Virus record (IMG/VR): IMGVR_UViG_3300025133_000049
Location: 30,788-94,787 of that record
Direction: 5' to 3' (one strand)
Length of the DNA stretch: 64,000 nucleotides
Origin: a virus
In this document: in pieces, positions 27,201 through 45,300 of the stretch
Layout: each line of letters starts with the position of its first letter
How positions within the stretch are numbered: the stretch's first letter is position 1
Notes under the pieces: generated by a model
The model's database searches: none
What the model was told of the DNA's origin: nothing
What the model saw: only the letters and a program-made list of their open reading frames with translations
Translations under genes and position numbers: made by a program

Positions 27201-27336
27201 CATGGCTCAAGGAATGCAAGATATAGCTAACATCGGAGCGGTTAGACGTAAAGATTCTCAGATGGAAGCTAACCAAAACATGATATTAAAGTACATTAAA
27301 TCTAACCGTCCGTTTGATACTGACGATTTAGGATAA
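24277..27336 (+). CDS. ejected cargo protein with glycine-zipper TM region and phage tail lysozyme domain
   Basis: GAAAGAKAGGMFGPWGQLIGGVAGG; EVERDE..GKPHEMGG; lysozyme-like GFSEQSALGVIANLAWET..GIAMWT..QLDYLLHE..FEGP (~25460-25890). Confidence 0.8.
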   Translation: MGKFADFTDKTKGFIEGQEGGIGGIADNVMGVVGQATKMIDDVKTPLGERMDRRGNITHEVDAAGNVMGGAAAGAKAGGMFGPWGQLIGGVAGGIGGGIASILDQNAQPDMLDQDSRYQQFMLENQVSTIRPEAAFAQQQQMAENGLDVKGNTKQIEVERDEIVLRKVGKTFRKVADFKGGKPHEMGGEQFVAEEGDIIFPGKDRRRITNLVNNKRWSAIESARQQLPTDVPTGRAELGFDNTDPIKKKYGQKDVDDINAQGGLSGNMLAQDGGSDVMNRLLKKKYEYDPNNAYLGKYGDSYADAEGFATKGGGMYKTQDGYITPSGNRTYNAADTKNYLKKIAELPENKDRTIMYKDSKGSEPFRQYSKQYAEGTKGIKTGSAGPAKDGIEDKIYSRLRKEGFSEQSALGVIANLAWETDNFTAWEEYKENIYGTKGGGIAMWTNNPWTNRRDMYDSWMKENNKDVLNVDHQLDYLLHEIYNVKENMATGKRFKIDKLKKMDSIAGAADYFMKGFEGPTDQSKEHLQKRLNLIANFTPEKLTEAKSELAQIKKDKPLVTKQDVKGFVKQAKDVVKGIFEAGGNSNKERIKAMQKAGYSEEEIQQAEGPESKSILAEINEAGGNSNKARIKGMQKVASTPYDEDGLNQDLLGRMRRSQKDGLAADKARTSENRRILSDTIKKYIVNDGTKLKILKDILAGGPMGINAASVPTNIIADIYEGEMRKGNIDKSFDEAFPDAEETPAPTNPQNSWEIPSGMSTGDAADALGINSIPERTAHEEQSVIPHIKKAGTIAGYEPTTGSGAELPAGATTSTGEQAVVNAQIGKTTESIKSGASMLGGAFESLAAYAPAIYNLAKGSEKAEKVNRNYVNPMMRSFQDRGQADRNEIDKAFRQSMASARNLSGGSQGNYRSNLEQAWANKIDRNAQVNTREASRADQVAAGNVAAINQADQINTQMENKADIMDMQSQSATDSFMAQGMQDIANIGAVRRKDSQMEANQNMILKYIKSNRPFDTDDLG

Positions 27337-27349
27337 AACAATATAAGAT

Positions 27350-28927
27350 ATGGCATCATTATTTGACAAACCAGTAGCAGCTAACCCGCAAAGTACCTTT
27401 GCTGCATTACCATTACAGTATATATCTCAATCTTTAGATAGGAGACAAGCTCAGTATGAACAAAACAAAGCTCAAGTGGAAGCTCAGAGAGACGAGTTCC
27501 TTAGTACTAGAGCTGTGGCTGGTGATGTAGAAAGACAACAGGCCCTTATATCCGAGTGGGATACTAAGCTAGATGATATGATAGAAGCTGCTGATGGAGA
27601 TTACTCTAGAATCAGAGGAGGTATAGATAGAATGACTAGGGATATTAAGCAAGAAAAAGCTTATGGTGAACTAGGAGCTATCGATAGGAACTTCAAAGGT
27701 GCTGTTAAAGACAGAGAAAACTTAGATAAGTTGTATCAAGCAGGTAAGATTAGTGAGGCTGGATACAATAAAGGGCTCAGTGCAATGCAAAACTTTAAAA
27801 CTACATTGGGGGATAACCAACAATGGAGTACGTATAGAGGGTATATGCCAAGTAATATTACAGATGTTCAAAAGAAATTAAGCGATGTAGTAGATGAAAT
27901 CAATGCTAAGTATGATGAATCAGGACAAAAGTATTTAAGTTCTGAGGATGCACAGACAGCACTCACAGGAGCAGTCAAATCTGACCCAGGTATTCTTAAA
28001 GCAATGCAAGAGAACTGGGAAGCTTTAGGATCTCAAGGAACATTCGGTGAATATTATAATAGTACATTAGGTAATGTTATAGCTAATAAGAAGTATCATC
28101 AAGTTCTTACTAAAAAAGAAGGTGGTGGAGAAGGATCAGGTGTAGGTCAGATACTTACAAATGTAACTATGCCTAGTAGAGGAGGTAGTTCTTATACCGG
28201 AGGTAGTGCAAGTAGCCTTAAAGCAATAGTCCAAAGTGTTTCAGGAAGAGATACTTTCAAAGAATTCAATGATTGGAGAGGATCTGAGCAAGGTAAATTA
28301 GATATTAAATGGATAGAAGCTAAAACAAAAACTGATATGCCTAAGAATCCTTCTGATGCTATTGATTGGATAGAGGATCATTTAGAAAAAACATACACAG
28401 CTAGCGTAGAAACAGAGGTAGTACCTAAACATTTACGAGGTAAAGTCATTAGTGACAAAGGTGAGATACTTACTCACGGTGCCTGGTACAATTCAGCAGG
28501 TGAACTTATTGATGCAGTCGACATTGAGGACCTACAAGGAGAAACTGAGGACGGTAAAGTAACTCAAGTTCTAGGTGTAGTTAAATCAGGTGGGGCATAT
28601 CCTAAAGGAACCTATCATATATTAGGTAAAGATGGTGAGGAGTACTTCCAAGAACCTACAGATGTTAGAACACTTAGTAGTCCTGAATATGTTAAGAGTG
28701 TAATCAACACTGCTAAGCATGCACCAACCGGATCATCCACTGCAAATTTAAGTAGGGGTTTGATAGGTAATGATGGAAGTATGATTATTCAACCTGGAAA
28801 TTATGAAACAAGAGCGTCAAGTCAAGGAAAAGGCGTAGCTTTGTATCAAAATGGAGAATTGATGTATGTACTTCATGCAACTCCTGATGCGACTGGTAAT
28901 GATATTACCGATTATACTCAACAATAA
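27350..28927 (+). CDS. ejected cargo protein (coiled-coil)
   Basis: 525 aa; STFAALPL N-terminal motif; no Cys; synteny. Confidence 0.7.
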   Translation: MASLFDKPVAANPQSTFAALPLQYISQSLDRRQAQYEQNKAQVEAQRDEFLSTRAVAGDVERQQALISEWDTKLDDMIEAADGDYSRIRGGIDRMTRDIKQEKAYGELGAIDRNFKGAVKDRENLDKLYQAGKISEAGYNKGLSAMQNFKTTLGDNQQWSTYRGYMPSNITDVQKKLSDVVDEINAKYDESGQKYLSSEDAQTALTGAVKSDPGILKAMQENWEALGSQGTFGEYYNSTLGNVIANKKYHQVLTKKEGGGEGSGVGQILTNVTMPSRGGSSYTGGSASSLKAIVQSVSGRDTFKEFNDWRGSEQGKLDIKWIEAKTKTDMPKNPSDAIDWIEDHLEKTYTASVETEVVPKHLRGKVISDKGEILTHGAWYNSAGELIDAVDIEDLQGETEDGKVTQVLGVVKSGGAYPKGTYHILGKDGEEYFQEPTDVRTLSSPEYVKSVINTAKHAPTGSSTANLSRGLIGNDGSMIIQPGNYETRASSQGKGVALYQNGELMYVLHATPDATGNDITDYTQQ

Positions 28928-28938
28928 AAGATATTACT

Positions 28939-31900
28939 ATGGCCATAGATCAAGATGCTACTAAAGATTTAAAGATGATTAACCCGGAACCGTCTCCAAG
29001 TGATTCGGCTTTTGAGGCCATGTTTGATTCAGCAAAGAGAACAGGAAGTTCTAGACCTGTTCCTACAAGTGCAGCCGCACAACAGAAAGCTATTAAAGGA
29101 ATGCAAGCAGATATCTTCTTTGATCAATCAGTTCAAGAGGGTAGTAGAGATCAGAAGCTAGATAAGTATGCTTCTTCTTTCGAAGATAAGAATGCAACCC
29201 GAGCTAGAAACCAAAATGAAGCTATCAAAGGTATCAAAGCTATTGGTGGAGGTTTAATTCAGGGTGGGCTTATCGTAGGTGAGCAGTTAGGTTATGTAGC
29301 AGATCTAAAGAATACTGCCAAGATGTTCAGTGATGCTGAAGATATGTCAGGTAACTGGTGGTCTAACATGTTTAGAGATGCTCAAGATAGTTTGAGAGAA
29401 TCTGATACGTTTAAAATTTACGAGAGTGGTACTGACGAGAACAGTATCCTATCTCAGATATTCAAGTGGAGTTCATTAGAGGGAGCTATCTCGTCCGCCG
29501 TAGGATTCGGTGTATCAGGATTAGGGGCAGCTTCCGTTGTTTCTAAGCTAGGTGCTTTAAAACAATTTGGTAAATTAGCGGCTATGACTGATAAGGTCAT
29601 GGGTAATGTTGCAGCTCGAGGTTTAACTGGGGTCAAAGCAGCTAAGGCTATGCAAGGTGCTGTAGGATCAACAAGAGCGTTTACAGGTCCTCTAGCATCT
29701 TCAGCTATGTCTAACTTCTATATGGGTCAGTTAATGGCTACAGATACATACACTCAATCAATGGATGCCATTAGAGGTAAGATTGATTCAGGTGAGATAT
29801 CTGAATTAGATGCTCAGAAGATAGCAAATGAAAATGCAAAGAATGTAGTTGGATTGAACATGGCTTTGGCCACTACTTCTTTCCTACGATTTGGTAGTAT
29901 ATTTAAAAGAGGTGGTAGACTAAAAGGATTGGTAAAGGATCCTACTGCAATGGCGCAGTTAAAAGATATGGTTATCAAAGGTTCTCCTACAGCATTCGGA
30001 GAAAACGTTTACCAGGAGATGATTCAAATGGAACAGATCTACAAGACTTCATTAGAAGCCGGCGTAGCATCTAAGTATGGTTCTGGTTATTGGGATAGAA
30101 TGACTCAACTAGCTTTATCTAATCGAGCAATGCATGCAGGTGCTCTAGGTGTAGTAGGTGGGCCTATCCAATTTGCTATTATCCAAAAGCCTTTGATGAG
30201 AGAACAGCACAAACAACAAAAAGAAACGTTTGACAATCAACAAGCCTCCCGGAAGTATCACGCTACTATGGTAGAGAATTTAGTTAAAGGTGATATGACT
30301 GCTTTCATGGAGTTCGACAAAGCTAGAAACGAAGCCATCATTGCTGGTGACTTTGAAGCAGCTGCTCTTGCAGAAGATATGGGATTGATTCGTGAAGTAG
30401 TTAAGTCAAATGAATGGGGAACAATAGATTACCTAAGACGAGATATAGAAAATGAATTAAAGCACAAAGAAACTCCAGAGGGATACGATGCTAACTATAA
30501 AGAAAATGGACAGAGAGCATTAGAGATGTTGGACAAGGTTGAAAGTTATAACTATGCATATAGTCAGTTTGAAACTAAGTCAGATTTAATCTATACAAAT
30601 TTAGCGATAGATGCATTGAACTCGAAGAGAGTAGAGAACAATCAGAAACTTGTAGCCTCTGCGCAACAGGTTCAAGCCATGGCTGTACTAGAAGGTGTTG
30701 AAGTTAACTTCGATACTGACACAGGTAGGTTTACAAAAGTAAAGAGAGATAAGAATAGATTCGAAGGGTTATCAACTAAAGAAGCAGTAGCTCAAAGAAA
30801 CCTCGAGAAGACTCAGGACAAAGCTTATGACAAGTTCATGGAGAAGGCTGAGGATATAACCGGATACAAAGATGCAATCAAATCTGATGTTAAGTATACA
30901 AACTTAGGTCAGAAGTTATTAGATAAGTATTCTTATTTAAAAAGTGATAAGGCTCAAGAGAAGGCCCTCAAGATGAAGAAGGATCAGTATGATAATGCTA
31001 AAGAGAATATCAAAAAAGCTGACGCTGAAGATAAAGCTGCAGCTACTGAAAAGAAAAACTCAGGCTTAACTCCTTTCTCAGTTGTTAAAGCAAGAGCTAA
31101 TAAAGAAACTGCTGAAGAGAAGGCGGTTAGAACTAAAGCTTGGGATGCTGAGGTGCAAGGTGTTAACACTCCTAGAGAGGGAAACACATTTACATCTAGA
31201 GATCAACAAGGTGTATCTAGACTTTATAGTAAGGGGGATATGTTGAGATCTAATGATGGTAGATATTTTAAAGTAGATACTCAAGCCGGCGCTGCTAAGA
31301 ATGCTAACCTAGCATCTTATGCTATGCCATTGGTATATGAAGTTACAGCTGAAGGTAAGAAACCTGGAGGTAAAGAGGATAGATGGATTAGATTTATTCC
31401 AGAAGATAATACATTCTTCAGACCAGAGGTTAAACAAGCTCATTATAATAGCAAAACTAAATCTTGGTATCATAAAGGTAACACACCTTTTGCCCCTTAC
31501 GTAGATGTTGACTCAGCTTTTAAACCAAACAATGAGTTAGCTCAGGAAGCTAGAAGACAAAAAGCTGCAGATGGTATTGCTTTAAGTGTAAATAATTTTG
31601 AGTTAGAAGCTAACCAACCAGGTGAGGGTCAACAAATTGTTGAAACAGAAATGGCTGCGGAGTATGACTTGAAGTCTTTGAACAATCCGTTGTTCCCAGG
31701 TGAATCCTATGAAGTTACTTTTAAATTAAATAAGCAACCTAATGGACAAACATTTGTTGATGTTTATAGAGGAGATAGTAAACTTACAAGATTAGATAGA
31801 CACTCTAACTTAAATCATCAAGTGATAGCACAAGCTTTACTTAAAGGTGAAGTTGCGGGATCTGTTATAGGTCACTACAGTAGTTCTAACAATCTGGTTA

Positions 31901-34900
31901 AACTTAGAAATGAAGATGGTACTTTTGTACAAAGTAGTATAGCTGAACTATCTAAAATGGATTCTAAGTATCTAGTTAACGGTAAGGTTCACTTTGCTAT
32001 CAACCCAGGAGAGTATGCTCAGAAAGAACCTGTAACGATGGCAGAAGATGGTACTATCATTACAGATAACAGAATAGAGCATACAGATGCAGATGGCGTT
32101 AAACATTCATTGAGCATTCCATATAGTTCTATGAAAAGTCCTGGAGATACTTACATGTTAATCATAGGGCCAGGTGGTCATATTATTCCTATAGCAACTA
32201 GAGGTAAGAAGCTAGCTGAGCTTGATAGTATGTCAGGAGAAGGAACTAGAGCTGATGATATAGTTAAAGAGGTTGCCCAGGTAACAGAAGAATTCATCAC
32301 AGAGGATATGTTAGAAGGTATGTCTGAATCTGAGTTCGATACAAACCTCAGAGCTACAATAGCTGTATCAAATAAATCTAGTCATGAACAAGCTCAAGAA
32401 TTTAGAAATCAAAAGATAGCTAAGCTTGATGAGCATTGGAGAGATTTCTCTAAGAAGATGGAGGAAACCATTTATCAAACAATTAAAAAGGACGGACGTA
32501 AGTGGAACTCTATAGGAACTACTCAGTCTGGTGAAAACATTTATCAAGCTACAGAATCCGGAACTAGAATTGTTAATCCTAACATGTTTAAGATTGGATT
32601 GTATGTAGATGAAAATGGAAAGTTCACTCCACAAATTCAAGAAGGAACTGGAACTACTAAAGTAAACTATACAAACCTATCTGAATCTGCTACTGAATTT
32701 ACATTAGCATTAGGAGATCGATTTGATAAAATAAGTTATGACAGATTCCTAGATTCGGGAGATGCTGCTACAAACAAAACTAATGCGGAGTATATATTAA
32801 ATGAATCCGGATTATCTACTGATTTAAATATCAGAAGACCTTTTGCTGGATCCTCAGCCACTATTAAAGTAGATGGTATGGATATAGCTGTTGAAGGAGC
32901 TGCAGTAGCAGACAAACATTTCACTAAGCATGACAGAGGTTCTATCGAAGCTATAACTAAACCTGCAGACGAAGCATTTAAGAAATCAACTATCGAAGAA
33001 CTAGATACATTTACTTCTTTCGAATCTACAGATGCTGACAGTATTGGTCAGTTGATGGGTGAAGAAGCTGGAGATGCTATATCTCATGTACTAGCATTCC
33101 TTGGAGATCTTGGGTTAGCTAACATGCCTAAAGTCAATAAAGAATTTAAAGACTTTATCAATAAAGAAGTTGAGGTAACTGAATATCAAGACAGTTTAAA
33201 ATATGCTGAGGCCGCTGGTTTCAAAGGGGAGAATGCAGTAATGGCCGCTAAGGTTCATTCATTTCTTACAAACTTAACTGTAGATATTAAAAATAACAAA
33301 CAAGCTTTATTCACAAAGGCTAATCAAAGCATGAGTGAAAAAGAAATTCAATTAGAGAACCATACTTTCAAAAGAGGAGCTCAAGTTTATTCTAAGAAAC
33401 ACGGGAAAGGTACTATTACCAAAACTGTGAAGAATGGTTATTACTTCATGAAGAACTACAAAGGTGATACTAAGAAAGTTTGGGCCGCTGATGTTGTTAC
33501 TTTAGATAGTAAGTACACTGAATTATTTAAAGCTCAAAGAAAACTTGCTAAGATGGATCCAGCAGATACTGGATATAAAACCACTAAAGCAACTGTAACT
33601 AGATTGGAAGCTAAGTATCTTAAACACTCAGCTGTTCCTTCTAATGAAACTGTTAATGATGGACCTAAAGTTACAGCTACTCCTGCAGTTAGTACTAAAA
33701 AGTGGACTACTGGAAGCACCAGTTTAACTATTACAGATGCTCATGATAGAGTTGCTACAGTTATGGCTACCTATGGTGGAATATCTGCAAAAGGTAATGA
33801 ACTAGCTGCTCAAAAGAAAGCCAATGGAGAGAAGCTTGGGTTGACTAGGGATGAAGCTACAAACTTCCATAAGTTATTGGAAGATAATATAATATTCACT
33901 GAAGCTGAATTATTAGATCTAAAAAGAAAAGCTGCTGACTTAGGAGCTAAACACGGCAATGAGGTTCTAGCTAATCAATCTGAGAACTTCATAGCTCTAA
34001 ATGAGATCTATAAAAATATCAAAGCTAACACTGATATGACAAAAGCTTATCCTACTTTACAAGTAGCTAAGGTAAACAAAAGAGGTGTTACAACTAAACT
34101 GAATTATGCTCCTATCTCAATGCTTAACACAGGGTTACCTGAGATGGGATCTACAAAATCTATTACATCTCCGTTTAGTGCTGGAGAACTTGGTGGATCA
34201 TTCAAAGCGGTTACTACAGCTATGCAGAATGTTTTAAAAACTATGGAAGCAATGGAAGCTCTAGAAGCTACCGACGGAGTTGTAACTCCAGCTGAAGTAG
34301 CTCCTTCTGTAGAAACTAAGACAGCACCTGCTGAAGCGCCTGGTAAAAAGATAACTATAGAAACTACACCTAAAGCAGATTCAGTTGCTGATGTATTTAA
34401 ATCAAAAGGATTAAGTCCTGCCTTAGCAGAACAAGTTACTCAGTTAACAGATAATCAACAGTTTGAGTTAAAACAAGCTATGGATTTATTTGAAGGTATG
34501 GAACAACCACTGCCATCTACATTAGAAGAAATTATGGAAGGACCTAAGTTCAAATCTGGGGATGCTGTTACATTAAGTAAAGCAGACTTCCACGCGGAGG
34601 TAGTAGCGGCTAAAGCTATGCTACCACAAGTTCCGTTTAAAGTTGTAGAGAATGTTGTAGCAATGGTAAATAAATATGGTACCAAAGCAATTGGGGCTTA
34701 TCACCAAGGTGTTGTAACTTTAGTTGAAGGTGCTAGAAAAGGTACAGCTTATCATGAAGTATTTCATGGTGTAGCAGATCTTCAATTACGTCCATTCGAA
34801 AAGCAAGCAATTGCTGAGGAGATGGGTTATCAAAAATGGAACTTAGAGTTAGAAGAGAGGTTAGCTGATATGTTTGCCGAGTATGTGGTAAATCATCAGG

Positions 34901-35172
34901 ATACTTCAATAGTAGGTAAGGTTAAACGGTTCTTCCAAGGTTTACTGGATTGGTTTAATGGAACTAGAACTCCTGAACTAACTAGACAGATATTTGAAAA
35001 GACCGCCACAGGTGGGTACGCTTCTTCTACTAGTCTCAATTATTTATCTAATATTGAGAATCATGTAAGAAAGTTTAGTACGATGGATGCCTTTCAAAAT
35101 TCGCTATCTCAAAAAGAATCAGTAACTTTACGGAATCTTATGAACAACAAAAGAATTAAAATAGTTTGCTAA
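28939..35172 (+). CDS. giant virion cargo protein with N-terminal hydrophobic helices and C-terminal zincin metallopeptidase
   Basis: HEVFH (34753-34767) plus downstream EERLAD zincin motif; 2077 aa; directly upstream of the RNAP. Confidence 0.85.
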   Translation: MAIDQDATKDLKMINPEPSPSDSAFEAMFDSAKRTGSSRPVPTSAAAQQKAIKGMQADIFFDQSVQEGSRDQKLDKYASSFEDKNATRARNQNEAIKGIKAIGGGLIQGGLIVGEQLGYVADLKNTAKMFSDAEDMSGNWWSNMFRDAQDSLRESDTFKIYESGTDENSILSQIFKWSSLEGAISSAVGFGVSGLGAASVVSKLGALKQFGKLAAMTDKVMGNVAARGLTGVKAAKAMQGAVGSTRAFTGPLASSAMSNFYMGQLMATDTYTQSMDAIRGKIDSGEISELDAQKIANENAKNVVGLNMALATTSFLRFGSIFKRGGRLKGLVKDPTAMAQLKDMVIKGSPTAFGENVYQEMIQMEQIYKTSLEAGVASKYGSGYWDRMTQLALSNRAMHAGALGVVGGPIQFAIIQKPLMREQHKQQKETFDNQQASRKYHATMVENLVKGDMTAFMEFDKARNEAIIAGDFEAAALAEDMGLIREVVKSNEWGTIDYLRRDIENELKHKETPEGYDANYKENGQRALEMLDKVESYNYAYSQFETKSDLIYTNLAIDALNSKRVENNQKLVASAQQVQAMAVLEGVEVNFDTDTGRFTKVKRDKNRFEGLSTKEAVAQRNLEKTQDKAYDKFMEKAEDITGYKDAIKSDVKYTNLGQKLLDKYSYLKSDKAQEKALKMKKDQYDNAKENIKKADAEDKAAATEKKNSGLTPFSVVKARANKETAEEKAVRTKAWDAEVQGVNTPREGNTFTSRDQQGVSRLYSKGDMLRSNDGRYFKVDTQAGAAKNANLASYAMPLVYEVTAEGKKPGGKEDRWIRFIPEDNTFFRPEVKQAHYNSKTKSWYHKGNTPFAPYVDVDSAFKPNNELAQEARRQKAADGIALSVNNFELEANQPGEGQQIVETEMAAEYDLKSLNNPLFPGESYEVTFKLNKQPNGQTFVDVYRGDSKLTRLDRHSNLNHQVIAQALLKGEVAGSVIGHYSSSNNLVKLRNEDGTFVQSSIAELSKMDSKYLVNGKVHFAINPGEYAQKEPVTMAEDGTIITDNRIEHTDADGVKHSLSIPYSSMKSPGDTYMLIIGPGGHIIPIATRGKKLAELDSMSGEGTRADDIVKEVAQVTEEFITEDMLEGMSESEFDTNLRATIAVSNKSSHEQAQEFRNQKIAKLDEHWRDFSKKMEETIYQTIKKDGRKWNSIGTTQSGENIYQATESGTRIVNPNMFKIGLYVDENGKFTPQIQEGTGTTKVNYTNLSESATEFTLALGDRFDKISYDRFLDSGDAATNKTNAEYILNESGLSTDLNIRRPFAGSSATIKVDGMDIAVEGAAVADKHFTKHDRGSIEAITKPADEAFKKSTIEELDTFTSFESTDADSIGQLMGEEAGDAISHVLAFLGDLGLANMPKVNKEFKDFINKEVEVTEYQDSLKYAEAAGFKGENAVMAAKVHSFLTNLTVDIKNNKQALFTKANQSMSEKEIQLENHTFKRGAQVYSKKHGKGTITKTVKNGYYFMKNYKGDTKKVWAADVVTLDSKYTELFKAQRKLAKMDPADTGYKTTKATVTRLEAKYLKHSAVPSNETVNDGPKVTATPAVSTKKWTTGSTSLTITDAHDRVATVMATYGGISAKGNELAAQKKANGEKLGLTRDEATNFHKLLEDNIIFTEAELLDLKRKAADLGAKHGNEVLANQSENFIALNEIYKNIKANTDMTKAYPTLQVAKVNKRGVTTKLNYAPISMLNTGLPEMGSTKSITSPFSAGELGGSFKAVTTAMQNVLKTMEAMEALEATDGVVTPAEVAPSVETKTAPAEAPGKKITIETTPKADSVADVFKSKGLSPALAEQVTQLTDNQQFELKQAMDLFEGMEQPLPSTLEEIMEGPKFKSGDAVTLSKADFHAEVVAAKAMLPQVPFKVVENVVAMVNKYGTKAIGAYHQGVVTLVEGARKGTAYHEVFHGVADLQLRPFEKQAIAEEMGYQKWNLELEERLADMFAEYVVNHQDTSIVGKVKRFFQGLLDWFNGTRTPELTRQIFEKTATGGYASSTSLNYLSNIENHVRKFSTMDAFQNSLSQKESVTLRNLMNNKRIKIVC

Positions 35173-35173
35173 C

Positions 35174-38100
35174 ATGGCTTGTAAAATAGAAAAAGTATCT
35201 GCAGAGAATGGTAAGGATTCATTATTATATAAAAGTCTAACTGCCAAATACCCGGAATCAATAGCGTTAACCAAGTATATAGATATCATGTCTGAAGCTG
35301 AAGGTAATGCTAAGATATATGGTAAAGATAAAAACGGGGAACCTGTAGCACAAGTTGATGGACCTAAGTTTAAGTTAGCTGAATTTAATTCTTACCAAGA
35401 ACAAATTGACTCAATGGAGTTGATGAGTTCTATGTTAGTTAGTGAATTTGCAAATACATTAAGTATTAAGGACCCATCTAAATTAGCGGGATTTGACTTA
35501 GCTAAACTAGACGGTGATCTAGTGGCTTTATCTGCAGCTGTTGCAAACGTTAGAAATAATTTAAAGCGGATGATGTTCAAAGCTCCTAGAGATGTGCAGG
35601 AGATTTACAAAACTATTATTCTTAATATGCCTCAGTATCTCGAACCTAGAGGCCCTCTTACTAGAAAACTAGCTGAGAGAGGTGTACTAATCAGAGTTAG
35701 AGATGAGTCAGTAACTGATCTTTTAGAACAAGGGTTAGAAGCTGAAAATGGTACAGTTGACTCTGATGTTGTTCGTGTTTCTTATGAGAGAATCTATGAT
35801 ATGGAAACTCTTGAAAGTTCTGCAATGAGATCTATTTCTGAAGAAGTTAAAACTTATATCAGAGGAAAAGAAAAAGTAAATGATAAAGGAGAATCAGAAT
35901 TAAGTTTATTAGGAACTCCAAGGCCAATTGAAGCAGGAGAAGCTATCTCAGATATGTTTACAGTTCTTGCAGGTGTTCAAAATCCTAGTGAAATGTTGGA
36001 AAGATTAGAACAAGCTGTAGGTCTCAAACCTCATCTTATGCCTATCTATTCTGACTTAATGAATGAACAACCTAAGCAGATTAAAGTTAATAATAAAACG
36101 ATAGAATATAAACCTATTACTGCTCAATTGTTTAGTACATTCGCTAAGCAAGATTATAACATGCACTCTGTTGTAGAAAAGATTGGTGGTGGTGTAATGA
36201 TCACTGCAGCTAATGCATACAATACAAGAAACAATCTTAAAAATAGATGGAAACAACAAACTTCTGATATAGCTCAAACTGATCAGACTAGAAATATAAA
36301 TAAATTAAATTCTTATACCAATCGAGCTGATTTAAATAGAAAGCTTAGACAAGGTAACAGTTTAGCATTAAAATCTACAGCTGCTTATATGAGAGCTGCA
36401 GGTTTTCATAATGTTACTCCAGCTATCTTAAAGGATATCGTAGATACATTCAATACAAAATCACAACCACCAGCATTTAAAAATCAAAGTGCGGGAGCTG
36501 TTCTTGTGAACATGCTTAACCTTGTAGCCAAGCCGGCCTTACAAGGAAAGGATATATTTAAAAATGTAGGTGAAACAATGGCTGAGACTAAATACTTAAA
36601 TCTCTTAGCTGAACATTCTACAAAATATGAAACAGATGTAACTGCAGGAGCCTTTAAAAACTCAGCAGGTAAAACTACACACCCTTTAAATAAAGGGTCA
36701 GAAGCTCAAGATATATGGTTAAGATTGAACAGGGATACAAAGTATGCTAATCAGTTCTTAAATGATCCTATGTATGAGAACACTAAAATATTAAATACTT
36801 TATTTAGTAATCCAGAAGGATTAAATGTAACTTCATTCTCTACATTGAGTAATGAAAGTGTAACTAACTCTGGTGTAGCTTTTGGTCAGTTATCTAATTA
36901 TGATGCGATCAATCTTAAACTGAATAGTTACTTCCAAGGTAAAGATTCATTCCATGCATATGGGCCAACACAAGCGGATAGAGGAAATATTAGTGCTTTA
37001 GTTTTACCTAAGATTTCTCAAGATGAAAAGATATTTGATCAGAGTGGTACAGTAATATCACCTGATATTAAAGAGTGGGTTTTCAATCAAGTCAAAGGTG
37101 AACTACAAAGAGTATTAAACACTAAAGATTCCGGCTATAAAAATCATAATAAAAACTCTCAGATGTTTAATTTATTTGAAGGTTTAAATGAGATATTTAA
37201 AGCGGAGGATGTGAACATGTCTAACATCGATCAGTTGGCCACCAGGCTAGCTGTGACAGCAGAACAACATCTTTATGCTGCAATACAAAGCGACATTGCA
37301 TACATGGCTAAGAAGGGAGTTATAGAGCTCGACGTATCTGGTGGAGTTAGATCATATAAATTAACTAATGATGCAATTGTAAGTGATAACGCGCACTCAA
37401 AGGGGAAGATCACCAATAAAGCGCTTAACGAGTTCTTGGTGAATAATTTTATTTACACATACGAACAAACATTATTCTACGCAGGTGACCCTGCTTTCTT
37501 TAAAGGAAAAGTAGATATGAACAAGAGGATGGGATTAGCCTTTACTCCAGGTGAAAAAGTAACAGTAGGTGATGCTACAGGTATAGGACCAACAGCTAAA
37601 ATTAAAATACTTCAGGAAGCTGAGATGAAGTCTGAGATGGCCGAAGTATATAAAGAACTGTTAGGAGAAAAAGCTGGTAAGGCTTTCTTACAAACAGAAG
37701 TAGCCGATGGTGCTGGTTTTGTTAGCTTAGATCGATATGGTGACCTTGCTTTAAGTAGAGGTAAACACTCTATAGCTATGTTAGAGTATATTGATGAGAT
37801 GAGCAGATGGGATCCTAAAAAACCTATGCCATCAACAGAAGCTGTTCTAGAAGTATACAAAGGATTCTATTTTAGATTACATGCAGATGAAACAGGTGTG
37901 AGACCTTTTAACTTAAAGTATTCTACACTCCCAGTATTCCCTGCATTCTTTGAACAAACTAAAGCAGATGGATCACTCAAGTACCCAGGTATGGCTAAGA
38001 TATCACAAGAACTTAGAAGTGGTAGAGCTGATGAAGTTGTAATGGGTTCTGCTGTAAAAGTTGGTGGATCTAATTTTGCAACATTAGAAACTCTAGCTGG

Positions 38101-41100
38101 AACAGAAGCTACAGTAATATACAATGAATCATACAGGTTCCCACAGGATTCTCCAACTAAAGATAAAACTGAAGATAACTTCGGTTCTCAGATGAGAAAA
38201 CTTATAACATCTAATCAAACTCCTGCAGGTAAACTGTCCGTGTTTGGTGAGACTGTTAGTGAAGGAGCTAGTATAGGATCATACAATGATGCTATTACTA
38301 AAATAGTAGGTAATGCTGCGACCAGGTTAAATAAAAGATTCCTCAATGGGGATTCTGCACCGAAAGTTGCTGAGCCTATGACCATGGAGAAAGCTAAGGC
38401 TACTCTTGAGAAAGTTCAAAAGAACACAAAGTTTATTAAACTTGAAGATGATGGTAGTGGGTATGTGAATACTAAAACAGGAAAACGTTACCAAAGAGTT
38501 ACAGAGTTTATATCTACCAAGGAGACTAAGATGAATGATGTCTTAAAATCTGCAGTTAACATCGGTAATAAATTGGATGTATTAACTAGGGATTTCTTTG
38601 ATGGGAACTTAAAAAGTGCAAAGGAATATGATGTTGCAGACTCACATATAGTTAAAGGTTATGTTAACCAACTCAAGGAAGTGAAAGCATTCATGGATAA
38701 GAGAGGTGAGGTGGTGATGGCTAATGATATAGTTTTATATAATGACGAGATAGGTGTTGCTGGTACCGTGGATTTAATCACATATGATAAAGATGGTGAG
38801 GTGAGAATCTACGATATGAAGACTATGAGAGGTAATCAACTTACAGAATCTTATGCCGCAGACCCAACTGTTTCTAAATATGATACTACTGTTTATGGAG
38901 ACTCGAACAGAGAGAAGCATAGAAAACAGTTAAGCATGTATAGAATATTGCTTAATAATACTCATGGGATTAAAGCTAAGGAAACGGCTATTATTCCAAT
39001 TGAGGTTATGTATAAACAAGGGGAAACTAGAACTAGTAGAATGAATCTACTTGATGGTATTCCAGTAAAACCTTTATCTAAAGTAGGGGAAGCTGAATTG
39101 ATTAATCTTGATCCAAATAAAGGGTATCATAAAGGAGAACTTAATACAGCTGAACTTGTTTCTAGTATCCTAGATAGTGCTGAAGCTAGTGGTTTTGTAA
39201 ACTTAGATTACTTCTTAGAAGCATTAACAGTTAAAGATGGTGAACTTACTTTACCTTTAAATTATCCTACGATTAAATTTAAAACAGATAGTTTAATTAA
39301 CTCTGCTTATAAAAAAGGAGCAGGTAGAATTAAATTAGCAGGACACTCTGCAGTACAGGTATCTAGTTTAGGTATGGTGGCCAATAAGGGGGAGTTCTCT
39401 ACAGATAGTGATTTAAAATTTGTTAGATTTTCTAAAAAAGGAAGTAACAAAGAATTGAGTCAACTTGATTCTATGGAGGTTTCCAGGAGAATTAGAGCGG
39501 GAGAAGATGTATCAGGTGAGTTTAAAACATTACCGGCACAAGTTAGAGTTAGCCCTAAGTTCTTCAAGAACAAACTTAAAGAGATTGCTAAAGGTAGAGT
39601 TAATAAAGCGGCCATTGGTGAAGCTTTGACTGGGTATAGAAATCATCTTAAAGAATCTGGATTATCTGAAGCACAGAAACAAAATAAGGTTAAAGCATAT
39701 GAAAGTTTCTTAAACAAAAAAGAAGCAAAGAAAGCTTATGATAAGTTAGCTAAAACTTTAAAAGATGATAAAGGTAATTGGGATGCATCTAAATTAGGAG
39801 AAGTAGCAGACATAGTTCTATACAGAATTCCTACACAAGCAAAGAACTCAATGTTATCGGGTACGATAATTGGTTTCCTTCCAGAAGAGTCTGGGGCGAC
39901 TATCCAAGTGCCATCTGAAATAGTTGACCAAGCCGGATCGGATTTTGATATTGATAAGGTTTATATTGAAACAACTGATTTCAATGTTAGTGAAGGACAA
40001 ATCAAAAGAGTTATGCCAGACTTTAACGAGTATGGTGAATTAGGAGAGAACAGTGACAGACAATTGAAAGCTTATATTCAAGAGTATCATAAAGCTGTTT
40101 TAAGTTCTACAAATCATGTAAGTGAATTAATGACGCCAAACGATACTATTGTCCTCAGTAAACTTGTAGAAGAGTTTAATATGGGTGATGATGTATTCAA
40201 CGGTAACTGGGCATCATTAGCATTACAAGAAACATTTAGATCTAATAACAAAGCAGGTAAGGAAATGATTTCTATTTCATCTGTAGCATCTGTTGCACAT
40301 GCGATAGCAGAACAATTAGGTGTTGAATCTGTAGGCGATATTAAGATAGCAGGTAAAACCTTAGAGTTAGGTTCTATCTTAAATTCTGATGGAACTAGAA
40401 TATCTGATGAGATAGGTGAGATACAAAATGCTGCATTGGATAATGCAAGAGATCCTCTATTAGGTAAATTAAATATTGACGCATTTACAGCATCAGTTGT
40501 TATGTTGTTAGTATCTGCAGGACATGGTTTAAAATATGCAGCCACTGTAGTTAATGATCCTATCATCAGAGATTTAGCTAGTGAATATCAAAAACACACT
40601 AGACATTCATCTCCTAGGATAGCTTATGAAACTGCTGTTGCAAATGTTAAAAAGAGATATGCAATTAGAGGTAAGCTTCCTAAAGTTAAGCTTGCTGATT
40701 ACTCTTTAGAGAATGCTGAGAACAATAGAGTAGATCAATCAGTAGAAGCTAGAAAAGAAGCTTTAGTTGTATTTGACGAGTTAAAGAAAATTGGGGATAA
40801 ATTATCTAAGTTCCAAACATCTTTGAACTTTGATTCTAAAGGAACTCCTTCTACGTCTCACGGTTTAGTATCTAAAGCTGTAGATATTGCAAGTGTACCT
40901 GGAACTTATTTAAATACAATGACATTGAATGGTGTGGGTCCACTAGCTGAGATAGGATTAACTCAAGAAATTAAAGATGCTGATTCTTTATTTAAAGTAG
41001 ATCCGGATTTATATGAAACCTCTCAGATAGGTGCCTTTGAAAAAGGTGTTATCATCGATCCATTAATAGTGAATAGAAAGATTTCAGTAGCTGCTTCTGT

Positions 41101-42322
41101 AGTTGGAGCCGATATAGTTAAACTTGCTAGATCATTAAACATATTTGATGAAAACGGTTTGACACATGTATTCAATGAGTTCGATACTTTCTTATTACAG
41201 AACCCTGTTGCATTCAAAGATAGTTCTACTGACATAGCTAATATGACTAGTTCTGAATTAGCTTCGTTAACAGATCCATCAAGTGCATTATCTCCTTCTA
41301 ACCTTCTAAGGTCATATAGAGGTAATCTTAAAGAGGGTGAATTGGAGAATAAGTTCACTAAAGGTTTAGACATAGTTGCAGAAGGTGGTCATGAATATAT
41401 CACGATCAACAATAATTTATCTGTAGGTATGACTCCTGAAGGACAACAAGAAGTTATGGTATTCTTCGAAGATTTAATGGCTTCTGATAATACTGCTGAA
41501 GCAACTCTTGCTAAGCAATTAACTAAGTATGCATTAGCTGTTAGTGGTTATTCTAAATCATTCTCAAGCTTTATGCACTTACTTCCTCCATCAGCTCATG
41601 TTGCTTACACAAATAGTGTAGAGACATTTAGAAATATGGGAGATCAATATGATAATGCTTCTGCATTTCATACTGGGAAGTTCTTAGATATGTATGTTCA
41701 AAATAATGCAGATAGATTAAAAATTCCAGTGAAGAAAGATTTAACTTCATTTGGTGAATTTGAAAAAGCTCCTACATATGTTTTCAAATATATATCTAAA
41801 GATAATAAGCAATTGCATAAATGGTCAAAAGAGAACTTAAGTTATGACAGAATAGGTCAAAGAGGTCTCAAAGGTTTAGTTAAAGAGTATCATGATGGTG
41901 AATCAATGTATCACTCTGATGGTAGTATGGCCCAATTCAACGCTGAAGGAGCTAAGCTTAAAGCTACATCTCAACAGAAAGGTAATATACAATTACTACA
42001 AGCAGAGCTGATGGTGATCAGTGAAGTTATCTCCTCTCTTATGGCAGAGGATATAACTAATGCAGACCAAGCAGCTAAAGCTGTAACTAAAGTACAAAGA
42101 AAACTTATAGAACTATCCGGTAAAGAAGATACCCAGACGTTTAGAGATTTCATTGGTAAACAAGTACCAACCATTAAAAAGTTTGTAGATAAACGAATTA
42201 ATAGAGGTCAAGACATTACTTTCCAAGAAACTTGGAAAAGAAAAATGGACGGTCAAATGGTAGAAACTCTACCTTACGAACCGTTCTTTAGAAAATTAAT
42301 CCAGAAAATAAAAGAATGTTAA
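35174..42322 (+). CDS. virion-packaged DNA-dependent RNA polymerase (phi14:2 gp66-like) with inserted PD-(D/E)XK nuclease domain
   Basis: GSDFDIDK catalytic motif (DFDID 39941-39955); YRIPTQ, DGAGF, KYS, SAVKVG, GSQMRKL and DNARDP motifs; nuclease insert at ~38350-39135. Confidence 0.93.
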   Translation: MACKIEKVSAENGKDSLLYKSLTAKYPESIALTKYIDIMSEAEGNAKIYGKDKNGEPVAQVDGPKFKLAEFNSYQEQIDSMELMSSMLVSEFANTLSIKDPSKLAGFDLAKLDGDLVALSAAVANVRNNLKRMMFKAPRDVQEIYKTIILNMPQYLEPRGPLTRKLAERGVLIRVRDESVTDLLEQGLEAENGTVDSDVVRVSYERIYDMETLESSAMRSISEEVKTYIRGKEKVNDKGESELSLLGTPRPIEAGEAISDMFTVLAGVQNPSEMLERLEQAVGLKPHLMPIYSDLMNEQPKQIKVNNKTIEYKPITAQLFSTFAKQDYNMHSVVEKIGGGVMITAANAYNTRNNLKNRWKQQTSDIAQTDQTRNINKLNSYTNRADLNRKLRQGNSLALKSTAAYMRAAGFHNVTPAILKDIVDTFNTKSQPPAFKNQSAGAVLVNMLNLVAKPALQGKDIFKNVGETMAETKYLNLLAEHSTKYETDVTAGAFKNSAGKTTHPLNKGSEAQDIWLRLNRDTKYANQFLNDPMYENTKILNTLFSNPEGLNVTSFSTLSNESVTNSGVAFGQLSNYDAINLKLNSYFQGKDSFHAYGPTQADRGNISALVLPKISQDEKIFDQSGTVISPDIKEWVFNQVKGELQRVLNTKDSGYKNHNKNSQMFNLFEGLNEIFKAEDVNMSNIDQLATRLAVTAEQHLYAAIQSDIAYMAKKGVIELDVSGGVRSYKLTNDAIVSDNAHSKGKITNKALNEFLVNNFIYTYEQTLFYAGDPAFFKGKVDMNKRMGLAFTPGEKVTVGDATGIGPTAKIKILQEAEMKSEMAEVYKELLGEKAGKAFLQTEVADGAGFVSLDRYGDLALSRGKHSIAMLEYIDEMSRWDPKKPMPSTEAVLEVYKGFYFRLHADETGVRPFNLKYSTLPVFPAFFEQTKADGSLKYPGMAKISQELRSGRADEVVMGSAVKVGGSNFATLETLAGTEATVIYNESYRFPQDSPTKDKTEDNFGSQMRKLITSNQTPAGKLSVFGETVSEGASIGSYNDAITKIVGNAATRLNKRFLNGDSAPKVAEPMTMEKAKATLEKVQKNTKFIKLEDDGSGYVNTKTGKRYQRVTEFISTKETKMNDVLKSAVNIGNKLDVLTRDFFDGNLKSAKEYDVADSHIVKGYVNQLKEVKAFMDKRGEVVMANDIVLYNDEIGVAGTVDLITYDKDGEVRIYDMKTMRGNQLTESYAADPTVSKYDTTVYGDSNREKHRKQLSMYRILLNNTHGIKAKETAIIPIEVMYKQGETRTSRMNLLDGIPVKPLSKVGEAELINLDPNKGYHKGELNTAELVSSILDSAEASGFVNLDYFLEALTVKDGELTLPLNYPTIKFKTDSLINSAYKKGAGRIKLAGHSAVQVSSLGMVANKGEFSTDSDLKFVRFSKKGSNKELSQLDSMEVSRRIRAGEDVSGEFKTLPAQVRVSPKFFKNKLKEIAKGRVNKAAIGEALTGYRNHLKESGLSEAQKQNKVKAYESFLNKKEAKKAYDKLAKTLKDDKGNWDASKLGEVADIVLYRIPTQAKNSMLSGTIIGFLPEESGATIQVPSEIVDQAGSDFDIDKVYIETTDFNVSEGQIKRVMPDFNEYGELGENSDRQLKAYIQEYHKAVLSSTNHVSELMTPNDTIVLSKLVEEFNMGDDVFNGNWASLALQETFRSNNKAGKEMISISSVASVAHAIAEQLGVESVGDIKIAGKTLELGSILNSDGTRISDEIGEIQNAALDNARDPLLGKLNIDAFTASVVMLLVSAGHGLKYAATVVNDPIIRDLASEYQKHTRHSSPRIAYETAVANVKKRYAIRGKLPKVKLADYSLENAENNRVDQSVEARKEALVVFDELKKIGDKLSKFQTSLNFDSKGTPSTSHGLVSKAVDIASVPGTYLNTMTLNGVGPLAEIGLTQEIKDADSLFKVDPDLYETSQIGAFEKGVIIDPLIVNRKISVAASVVGADIVKLARSLNIFDENGLTHVFNEFDTFLLQNPVAFKDSSTDIANMTSSELASLTDPSSALSPSNLLRSYRGNLKEGELENKFTKGLDIVAEGGHEYITINNNLSVGMTPEGQQEVMVFFEDLMASDNTAEATLAKQLTKYALAVSGYSKSFSSFMHLLPPSAHVAYTNSVETFRNMGDQYDNASAFHTGKFLDMYVQNNADRLKIPVKKDLTSFGEFEKAPTYVFKYISKDNKQLHKWSKENLSYDRIGQRGLKGLVKEYHDGESMYHSDGSMAQFNAEGAKLKATSQQKGNIQLLQAELMVISEVISSLMAEDITNADQAAKAVTKVQRKLIELSGKEDTQTFRDFIGKQVPTIKKFVDKRINRGQDITFQETWKRKMDGQMVETLPYEPFFRKLIQKIKEC

Positions 42323-42325
42323 TCC

Positions 42326-45300
42326 ATGGCTACATGTAACATAACAATAAAAGCTAAAGATGGTGAGTCATCTTTCCTTTTCAAAGAATTATTAAACGTA
42401 AGCAACAACCCTGCTAACGCAATAGATCAATATTTCTATACAAGAACTGAAGAGTTTAAAAGAGAATTTGGTGATTGGGAAGCACCTGGGTTTGATAAGT
42501 CTAAATTAGATGCCAGAGGAGAACCTTTGTTCTCAGCTATATCTGATGAAGCTTGGCATTTTGATACAGACTTTGCAAATATAAATCTAGAAGAAGGAGC
42601 AGCTATTTATAAAAAAGTTCTTGATGTAGCTCCTGTATTGATAGATACTCTTGAGACTAAGTTAAAACAACTTAAAGGTTTGAGAAAAGGAACAGCCATA
42701 CTTGCAATTAAACAAGTAGAAAGCTTATTAGAAACTTTGAAGACTGAGGACTTAGCTACAGGTATTCCTAAAGTATTAGCAAGTTCTTCTAAGTACTTAG
42801 CCAGACTTAAAGAGAGAGCTTTAAATAGTGCAAAAAGCGGAACCGACATACGTAAGTTAGCGGGTATTCATAAAGATGCTCAATCTTATAGAATTGTAGG
42901 AGATTTACAAAATCAATTGTTAGGTACATTAGAAGCTTCGGAGATATTCTCTGAGGATCTCTTTGGTTCTATTTCCAGTGTAATGGGAGATATGTTAGCT
43001 ATTGAAAATGTATATATGGAAGTAGCTAAGAAACATTTAGTTGAAGCATTTCATTCACAAGATTCATCTTGGAGTAAGAAGAGTATCAGAGATTGGTTAG
43101 ATCATGCACCAAGGGATACTAAGAAAACTGAAATGGCCCTAGAGTACCTGGGAGATTCTCATGATAGGGTATTATCAGCTACAGCCAAAGCAGTTAAAAA
43201 TGTACAGAATGATGTACGTGTTGCTAGTATAGAATTTAATAAAAGATTAGAGGTAGCTCAGATAGCTTTAGAAAAAGAATCTGGGACTAATAATGCAGAG
43301 AAGATGTATGGTGACATTATCTATAAAGGGAAGGACGGTAGTTTAAAATACCTCAACCCTAACATGGAAGCCACGGACTCTAGATTTGCTCAATTAGAGA
43401 AAGTAAGAACTAGTAAACCAGCCTTATATGATTTCTTAGTATTGTACTCAGATACAATGCAAGAGTTAACAGCAATGACCGGCGCTAAACTAGAAGGATC
43501 ACTCCCTATAGTTCTTAAGGCAGGTAGAGAAAGAATACAAGGACAGAATTTAAAAGATAGATATAAACAATTAGCGGATGATAGTAAAAAATCTTTCCTT
43601 AAGTCTAACCAGGATTTAGAAAAAGGTGAGGTAACTAATGGGGTATACCAGGCTAAGGTTCCGGTATATTATACTAACAAGTATGACTCAGTTGATTACG
43701 AATCTTTTTATAAGGACAAATACAAAGAGTTGATTGAAGGTGGGTTAACTGATATAGCAGCTGATGAACAAGCTGATACATATGCAACATTTAAAGCTAC
43801 TGAAAAGAATGCTGAGTTTGTTAGTAAAGATTTAGCATATAGCTTACAATCATTCCACGCAATGGGAACTAATTATGCTCAAATGGATGCTGTTATAGAT
43901 ACCTTAGATGCGGCCAAAGCTGTGGTAGGTTCTAATCAACGTACATACACCTTGGTTGATTCAGGAGGTAAAAGAATAATGAGAAAGATTAGAGGAGCTG
44001 ATGGTAAAGCATTACCAGAAACAATTGGTGGTCCAGAATCGAATTCATACAAAGCTCTAGAGTCATTCTTAGAAGCTCAAGTATACGGTCAAACAGAAGC
44101 ATATAAAGGTACATTTAAAATAGGTAAACATACGATCGATACAGCTAAAGTGCTACGTAAATTAAATAGCGGAACTAGTTGGGTTCAGATGAGTATGAAC
44201 GTACTAGCATCAGCGGCCAATGTAGGTAACGGCGAGTATAATAACGTTATGGAATCTATGGGTGGTGAGTATTTTAATACTAAAGATTACCGTGCGGGAT
44301 CGAAGTTCTATGCTCAACATTTGTCTGGAGTTCTTAGTGATTTCGCAGAGAGAACACCTAAGAGTTTACTAGGTAATATCATAGAGCACTATGATACTAT
44401 GCAAGACTTCCAGGCTAAAGGTACTATCAAAGGAACTGAAGGTACAGCTGCTAGAAGATTGATTAAATGGGATTTAGCTTTCTTCTTACAAAATGCCGGC
44501 GAACACTTTATGCAAACTAGAGCTGCATTAGCTGTATTCAATAACACTAAGACGTTCAATAAAGATGGAACAGAAGCCGGTACTTTACTTAGTGCACACT
44601 CTGTAAAGAATGGATCATTAGTTATTCAGGATGTATACGTTAAAGGTAAAGATGGTGAGTTAGCTAAGTTCGATAGAGCTGAACAGAATAGAGTAACCAA
44701 CAGAGCACAGGCTATTATTAGAAAGTTACACGGTAACTATAATAAACAAACAGCTAACTTAATGAAGAGAGATGCTAGAACAGCATTACTACTTAAGTAT
44801 CGTGATTGGGCTTATGAAGGTATTGTTAGAAGATATGGTAAGAAACAATACTATGATTCATTAGAACAAGATGTGGAAGGATTCTACAGAACAGGAGCTA
44901 GAGTTCTAGGAGCTCAAGCTAAAGCAATATCTAAATTACAATTGTCTCTAGTTAAAGAAAACTGGGCCAACCTAACTGAACATGAGAGAGCTAATGTACG
45001 TAGAGCTGTAATGGAAATAGCTGCATTAACAGCTTTATCTATAGCAGGAGCTTTAATGGCTCACGCAGGTAAGATGGTAGAAGAAGAATACGACGGAGAT
45101 AGTTTTGGAGATATGGCAGCCAGGGGAACCTTTGCTTTCATGAACTATGAAGTGAACAGATTATTCACGGAACTTGCAGCATATTCTAGTATAGGTGAAG
45201 CACTTAGATTAATGCAAACACCTGCTGCGTCTACCTCAATACTCGAAGGTTCTTATAAACTTCTGGTACAGGCATTCAATCCTACAGAGGTTTATGAGAG

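Follow-up and report, generated by a model that had tools for sequence, protein, structure and literature searches.

No phages are more abundant in the human gut than the Crassvirales. Their virion RNA polymerase (RNAP), its partners and the polyprotein forms of these proteins are already known, as is a disulfide between two proteins of cyanophage A4. We describe here a cassette shared by the N-termini of two neighboring virion proteins, and the cysteines (Cys) at the ends of three, in a DNA stretch of 64,000 nucleotides (positions 30,788 to 94,787 of the IMG/VR virus record IMGVR_UViG_3300025133_000049, i.e., the last 64 kb of this 94.8-kb record; hereafter the window). The window comes from a crAss-like phage of the phi14:2-like clade and holds the crAss-like structural block. 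The trio of interest consists of three consecutive genes on the + strand, encoding a 2077-aa (amino acid) protein, the virion RNAP and a 1033-aa protein.

The closest described protein is the RNAP of Cellulophaga phage phi14:2, gp66, for which a crystal structure is available (6VR4). Its N-terminal domain is the cassette by sequence and by fold, with the MACKIE start seen on the window RNAP, and the preceding gp67 ends in Cys. In the phi14:2 paper, ~1600 residues of gp66 outside the catalytic core, with the cassette domain among them, are without detectable homologues or function; the description of gp66 mentions neither a copy on the neighboring protein family nor the terminal Cys. In crAss001, the orthologues of the trio are gp47, gp50 and gp49 (Bayfield et al. 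2023, PMC10172136), with the cassette on gp49 and the same Cys pattern. Unlike in the window, the gp50 RNAP starts with a different N-terminus (type C, see below) and gp47 is encoded on the other strand. These orthologues are present in crAss001 virions by mass spectrometry (PMC10172136), and the phi14:2 counterparts are virion proteins according to the phi14:2 annotation. The crAss001 virion contains many structural disulfides, the tail included; the paper reports those of the tail and is silent on links between cargo proteins (PMC10172136).

In cyanophage A4 (A-4L), the C-terminal helix of gp27 is inserted in gp26 and stapled by a Cys1715-Cys5 disulfide, as seen in a solved structure (PMC12002296). 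In A-4L, gp27 and gp26 have one Cys each, at 1715 of 1717 and at 5 (after M-S-K-H), so that the sole upstream Cys is three residues from the C-terminus and the sole downstream Cys at position 5. The window trio has the same arrangement, with a sole or near-sole terminal Cys upstream facing a downstream Cys at about position 5. On the other hand, A4 belongs to a different phage family, has one such junction only and no RNAP in the chain, and receives the helix in a cleft between domains of gp26 rather than in a 60-aa cassette. The docking domains of polyketide synthases and nonribosomal peptide synthetases (PKS/NRPS), to which a first reading of the window from its letters alone (the sequence-only reading) had compared the cassette, are also short terminal elements that pair a C-terminus with the next N-terminus and order modules that are fused in other systems. 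They are, however, non-covalent and cytoplasmic, with no Cys staple and no sequence relationship to the cassette, and the likeness is one of analogy only. A last comparison is with the polyvalent proteins that carry ART-PolyVal units, where ART stands for ADP-ribosyltransferase (Iyer et al. 2017, PMC5512222; PF18760); like the RNAP and its partners, these proteins are delivered along with the DNA.

Our preferred reading of the trio, to which we give about even odds (roughly 0.5), is that the cassette caps a separately translated segment and that its Cys joins up with the C-terminal Cys of the protein before it, likely as a disulfide in the virion, so as to form a linear chain. The genes, cassettes and cysteines concerned are:

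28939..35172, + strand: 2077-aa cargo protein, first of the trio, resembling crAss001 gp47 and phi14:2 gp67; no cassette; its sole Cys is its final residue
35167..35169, + strand: TGC codon of Cys2077, last residue of the 2077-aa protein (..KIVC)
35174..42322, + strand: virion RNAP of gp66/gp50 type, 2382 aa; starts MACKIE and ends ..KIKEC
35174..35359, + strand: type-A cassette on the RNAP, residues 1-62 (arm with Cys3, hairpin, three helices, D-x-N-G-E-P strand)
35180..35182, + strand: TGT codon of RNAP Cys3 (the RNAP has Cys only at residues 3 and 2382)
42317..42319, + strand: TGT codon of RNAP Cys2382, the final residue
42326..45427, + strand: 1033-aa RNAP-associated cargo protein, orthologue of crAss001 gp49; starts MATCNI
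42326..42541, + strand: type-A cassette on the 1033-aa protein, residues 1-72, with Cys4
42335..42337, + strand: TGT codon of Cys4, sole Cys of the 1033-aa protein

The 2077-aa protein matches crAss001 gp47 over the zincin region (BLASTP E 1.2e-7). The window RNAP matches 6VR4 in three blocks (phmmer E 4.5e-22) and has its catalytic motif, DFDID (the form DFDxD with I or V as fourth residue), at residue 1590 (39941-39955). The body of the 1033-aa protein aligns with crAss001 gp49 over 845 columns (BLASTP E 3e-55) and is of the gp49/gp65 type; its gene begins 3 nt past the RNAP stop.

The sequence-only reading had recognized the same module of ~60 aa on the RNAP and on the 1033-aa protein, with coordinates and strings that are correct. 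Compared directly, the two window N-termini give no match by BLASTP and a weak signal by Smith-Waterman (residues 2-22, score 37, equalled by 27 of 2000 shuffles), so that family profiles are needed. The N-terminal pattern is retained in relatives of the 1033-aa protein. A hidden Markov model (HMM) made from six gp49-type N-termini only was searched against 1569 open reading frames (ORFs) of the genome and of eight related loci (loci are designated below by L numbers and proteins by P numbers). The sole matches outside the training set are two RNAP N-termini, those of L002 (E 8.8e-5) and of the window (E 0.0066, HMM positions 1-61), both end to end from residue 1, and the next match is at E ~1. 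With the HMM iterated on 95 loci, the independent E-values (iE) reach 4e-11 for the window RNAP (residues 1-58), 2.7e-12 for phi14:2 gp66, 3.5e-19 for the window 1033-aa protein (residues 1-72) and 6e-21 for crAss001 gp49. An AlphaFold2 (AF2) model covering residues 1-90 of the 1033-aa protein (28-row alignment; predicted local distance difference test, pLDDT, 80.5) presents a hairpin, three helices and a closing strand-helix. Its one meaningful PDB match is the N-terminus of 6VR4 (Foldseek prob 1.00, TMq 0.57, root-mean-square deviation 2.2 Å, 66 columns; VIA-align Z 7.7, beginning at chain residue 2), and the cassette profile matches the sequence of 6VR4 over native residues 1-75 (E 1.1e-5). 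The family HMM, the iterated profile and the fold match thus confirm the shared module, and the cassette is a true protein domain, ancient and some 60-72 residues long. Outside it, the RNAP and the 1033-aa protein are unrelated (best BLASTP E 0.85), and neither single-pass nor iterated HMM matches the 2077-aa protein or the shorter cargo proteins, both as first described. Pfam, PHROGs and NCBIfam contain no family covering the cassette, without any Pfam or NCBIfam match on either window copy, described docking-domain families included, and the ESM Atlas gives sub-threshold leads only (LPD39 at 0.78 among them).

The type-A cassette opens with a short arm, in which a Cys at position 3-6 is invariant, and continues with a small hairpin, three helices (with the motif S-x-L-[FY]-x-x-L ... 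A-x3-[YW] ... F-x3-F) and a D-x-N-G-E-P strand that closes it. Both window copies, on the RNAP and on the 1033-aa protein, match the profile from residue 1, have their Cys within positions 3-6 and carry the closing G-E-P strand. Identity between the two is 24%, against 41-52% with their respective orthologues, and each clusters with the orthologues from L026 and L027 (support 90/56 and 98/96). A recent intragenomic copy is ruled out by these identities and groupings, and the two are old paralogues.

A profile of 28 cassettes was searched against 1.84 billion protein cluster representatives, of which 1472 match at E<=1e-3 and 208 at E<=1e-10. Among the best 150 of the 1472, the match starts at residue 1 in all but three. 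Cys occurs at position 3-6 in 148/148 (147 listed matches plus the window RNAP, which ranks below the best 150; two polyvalent proteins are excluded). The full-length carriers are mostly of 1000-1700 aa (gp49/gp65 type), with a few of 2000-4800 aa. The cassette is the standard N-terminus of the gp49/gp65-type cargo protein across Crassvirales, and in the phi14:2-like clade a paralogous copy occurs also on the RNAP. In crassviruses it is never found away from residue 1, save for one second internal copy before an ART in P0143.

The portability of the module, another early suggestion, is borne out, since the cassette is strictly N-terminal and interchangeable on the gp49-type body. In different phages, orthologous gp49-type bodies carry at least five N-terminal types (A to E), each beginning with M-x(1-4)-C; a type-B and a type-A carrier, for example, are 31% identical from residue 103 to the end. 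In L030, the RNAP carries type A and the downstream protein type C, the opposite of the gut crAss phages. Types B and C are probably related, judging from hhalign (prob 88% over 26 columns); the A versus B comparison is weak (prob 20%), and hhalign gives nothing for A versus C. The strict N-terminal position would also suit a packaging signal that recruits proteins into the procapsid independently of the neighboring protein, the more so as all carriers are virion cargo in cultured relatives (PMC10172136; phi14:2 annotation). However, neither the first chain member nor cargo proteins C1 and C2 have a cassette, and different cassettes substitute on the same body; we consider a packaging signal highly improbable.

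The pairing of termini through Cys, on which our preferred reading turns, has its basis in the following distribution. In the window trio there are four Cys in 5492 residues (2077 of 2077; 3 and 2382 of 2382; 4 of 1033), all at termini that face each other; the neighboring genes average ~0.45% Cys. In phi14:2, Cys1797 is the last of the 1797 residues of g067, and g066 (2180 residues) carries Cys3 and Cys2179. In crAss001, gp47 has Cys2339 of 2341, gp50 has Cys5 and Cys2404, and gp49 has Cys5, the same pattern with gp47 encoded on the opposite strand. A Cys-ending upstream gene had been noted for the two window cassettes, for which it is true, and the proposed check was to combine an HMM with inspection of the upstream gene. 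Run on the loci, this gives 33 deduplicated cassette proteins, 30 of them with a large upstream ORF ending within 120 nt, and the upstream protein has a Cys within its last 10 residues in 30/30 (as the last residue itself in 15), in full agreement with the claim.

Junctions in general were surveyed in 80 diverse loci retrieved through the DFDID block. Both Cys are present at 49/60 deduplicated large junctions versus 4/73 control junctions, the exceptions among the large ones being mostly non-cargo junctions. The chains have a polarity: a C-terminal Cys is found in only 1/54 last members, and there is no N-terminal Cys in first members of the gp67 type or of the fused type. With extra gene splits (L058, L082, L087), there is a Cys on each new end. 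In the split gp49-type gene of L058, the new ends read ..IKCS and MAC.., and between the pieces lies a 261-aa ORF (L058:16043-16828) with a GIY-YIG-like start (G-I-Y-Q-I-K-N ... Y-I-G-S-S). Internal Cys amount overall to 0.085% in giant ORFs versus 0.70% in the other ORFs of the same loci. Some RNAP loci (L029, L032-L034, L040, L047, L097-L099, L104, L105) have only short ORFs around the DFDID match under table 11 and were excluded from the junction counts; they probably use a reassigned stop codon, as in some crass lineages. The Cys codons (TGT and TGC), their distances from the termini and the gene gaps are all variable, which points to selection on the proteins and not to a nucleotide signal. 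A signal at the DNA level is ruled out by the use of both codons, by the varying spacing and by the position of crAss001 gp47 on the other strand.

The same termini could be read as a purely non-covalent contact, the cassette being a docking domain of the PKS/NRPS kind for the preceding C-terminal peptide, with cysteines that are incidental or metal ligands. The cassette is indeed terminal, portable and always facing a C-terminal tail. In addition, an AF2 read-through fusion (RNAP tail, TAA read as Q, Ser, cassette) forms a terminal helix at residues 46-61 and raises the confidence of the last 10 residues of the tail (pLDDT 79, with the cassette at 89-95), in a model that its short, two-residue covalent linker biases. 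But conservation in the tails is limited to the Cys, these are the only ones in thousands of residues, they vanish upon gene fusion, and no second set of ligands is conserved, which makes a purely non-covalent contact quite unlikely.

Gene fusion also bears on the preferred reading of Cys-paired segments. Fused forms join the upstream protein and the RNAP (3500-4700 aa) or the RNAP and the gp49-type protein (about 4500 aa), and at the internal junction of the fused polyproteins there is neither Cys nor cassette. In several upstream+RNAP polyproteins, >4000 residues long, the sole Cys is found at the C-terminal end. The sequence-only reading had pointed out that the RNAP stop and the next start are in frame (TAA-TCC-ATG at 42320-42328), which is correct, and had suggested past fusion or fission, or readthrough. 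Fusion and fission are seen in relatives and have been published (bioRxiv 10.1101/2020.03.07.982082). The readthrough part does not hold: the gap is a multiple of three in only 15/57 related junctions, roughly the level of chance, so that readthrough is without support, and it is ruled out along with a relic of the reading frame. The commonest junction layouts, a 1-nt gap and a TAATG overlap, correspond to ordinary tight coupling.

In the preferred reading, the cassette caps one separately translated piece of a chain that other crassviruses encode as one polyprotein of 4000-4700 aa. Its Cys faces the sole Cys at, or close to, the C-terminal end of the piece before it, and the two would form a disulfide in the virion, with the resulting linear chain 2077-aa protein - RNAP - 1033-aa protein. 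This chain would be co-packaged and ejected in sequence; reduction, or the zincin protease packaged with it, would then take it apart. The cassette itself would be the folded acceptor end that presents the Cys, and it may cradle the incoming C-terminal helix, as A4 gp26 does for gp27.

Several points weigh against this scheme. In crassviruses we infer the disulfide at the junction, as we do the docking contact and the role in ejection. The Cys pair is equally present at junctions with N-termini of type B, C, D or E; since these types are unrelated to type A, the type-A cassette is not required for pairing, and the upstream Cys tracks the N-terminal Cys rather than the type-A cassette. The upstream C-terminal tails are unconserved apart from the Cys, so that no docking strand or surface is visible in sequence, and they are too divergent to align for a co-variation of tail and receiver. 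Both window junctions combine type-A receivers with similar K-I-x-x-C tails, which leaves the specificity of order unexplained. The N-terminal domain of 6VR4 is ordered in the recombinant RNAP without partner, and the AF2 fusion, which its short linker biases, comes without readable contacts. Searched against A4 gp26, the cassette HMM yields no match (E 0.34, internal position), and there are no A4 chains among the PDB sequence or fold matches of the cassette. In some gut lineages (among them L037, L046, L025 and L096), the giant cargo proteins have 5-22 internal Cys besides the terminal ones. Finally, the core of the cassette is also found internal, repeated and Cys-free in polyvalent proteins, and its primary role may thus lie elsewhere. 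The receiver or docking domain of the sequence-only reading is therefore retained in part: the N-terminal position, the portability, the tie to an upstream Cys and the A4 precedent speak for it, whereas the Cys link is not specific to the cassette, the tails are unconserved and the core is not confined to termini.

The polyvalent proteins in question, P0009 and P0141, belong to the three exceptions among the best 150 profile matches and have ART-PolyVal repeats together with MuF_C, LPD and PBECR domains. The cassette profile matches internal copies in both (7 in P0009, 4 in P0141), each just ahead of an ART-PolyVal and none with Cys. The stretch before each repeat, A-P-N-G-x-x-S-x-L ... F-K-x-W-F-G-D-W ... 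D-x-N-G-E-P, is what matches the profile, and the D-x-N-G-E-P with which the cassette closes falls on the opening positions of the ART-PolyVal model. These helical leaders, which are not themselves a described family, differ from the window cassettes in being internal, repeated and Cys-free and in having a catalytic ART behind them, a body that the window proteins lack. The signature of ART-PolyVal is a His in strand 1, a Tyr in strand 2 and an Asp in strand 5 (PMC5512222). The strand-1 His (Y-H-G-T after G-E-P) is absent from the window proteins, which read L-F-S-A-I-S and V-A-Q-V-D-G at this place. A hidden ART body in the window trio is ruled out, with no match to Pfam PF18760 at E<=0.1 and none better than E 1.6 with a local ART profile. 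From these observations, the core of the cassette is the leader of an injected ADP-ribosyltransferase unit minus the enzyme, to which crassviruses have added the Cys arm and the strictly terminal position.

In some crass proteins, an intact ART comes directly after the cassette or its remnant (in P0133, ART-PolyVal extends from residue 72). ART-PolyVal-like domains occur also sporadically in various members of the trio, in the N-terminal regions of the RNAP (L052, L059, L089, L090) and in L096:142-4764, L068:13029-19178, L039 and L088; these are injected ADP-ribosyltransferases riding on the RNAP or on its partners.

With such an origin, the cassette might be only the relic leader of an ART-PolyVal effector unit, with an unrelated job (for example, binding of a host or phage factor after injection), and the Cys arm alone would make the link. 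The repeated internal copies right before ART-PolyVal in P0009 and P0141, the intact ART of P0133 and the Cys pairing with other N-terminal types all agree with this. But the crassvirus cassette never leaves residue 1 (the second copy of P0143, before an ART, apart), is missing at the internal junctions of fused forms and survives in lineages without an ART body. Since it is kept where the ART body is lost, something selects for it at the terminus, and we hold the relic reading to be rather unlikely.

The preferred reading, a capping cassette with a Cys link to the preceding protein, includes a release step, and for a cleavage by the zincin three further features are relevant:

34540-34554, + strand: second copy of GPKFK, residues 1868-1872 of the 2077-aa protein, ahead of the zincin domain
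34753..34767, + strand: HEVFH, the zincin-type motif toward the C-terminal end of the 2077-aa protein (residues 1939-1943)
35360..35374, + strand: GPKFK motif immediately 3' of the RNAP cassette, RNAP residues 63-67

The G-T-x-Y-H-E-x-F-H block of the 2077-aa protein recurs just ahead of the RNAP part in fused polyproteins. Were the cassette a cleavable leader, the zincin would cut at G-[PA]-K-F-K after the cassette and at the twin site before the zincin domain, excising the clasp and freeing the RNAP body. The site in the 2077-aa protein is 71 residues before the HExxH, with the HExxH domain between this site and the terminal Cys, and in L026 both homologous sites read GAKFKK, so that the two co-vary. 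However, L027 has only a weak form of the motif and phi14:2 none, nor is there such a site in the 1033-aa protein; 6VR4 retains the domain, and a repeated 5-mer between two 2000-aa proteins is expected ~once by chance. A cleavable leader is, on balance, improbable. A wider version of the preferred Cys-linked chain can be put forward tentatively, as a possibility: crassviruses would split an injected polyprotein of >5000 aa into genes and rejoin the pieces by a covalent clasp, made of a Cys-ended helix and an interchangeable Cys-capped cassette. The types A to E would set the order of joining and of entry, and the clasp would be undone by reduction or by zincin excision at G-[PA]-K-F-K.

The trio has one other domain, and two genes precede it. 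Within the RNAP occurs:

~38420-39016, + strand: PD-(D/E)XK-like insert inside the RNAP (PHROG exonuclease match, E 5.6e-16)

This insert is homologous to a region of crAss001 gp47 (E 6.9e-13), not of gp50, so that the PD-(D/E)XK-like domain has changed place among the members of the trio. The two genes before the trio, 24277-27336 (1019 aa) and 27350-28927 (525 aa), occupy the position of the cargo proteins C1 and C2 and have zero cysteine in both products; the 525-aa protein has a weak match to phi14:2 g068.

In the literature we found no paper on the cassette family, on its presence on both proteins, on the link to the ART-PolyVal leader or on the tie to the junction Cys. The cassette names and delimits an unannotated domain of the solved phi14:2 polymerase. 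It connects this domain of the RNAP with the cargo protein next to it and with the leaders that precede injected ADP-ribosyltransferase units, and it marks, in any crass genome, the boundary between one injected segment and the next. Together with the rule of terminal Cys, it raises a testable question: do the ejected proteins travel as one disulfide-linked thread? If so, the single junction of the A4 cyanophage would extend to a whole viral order.

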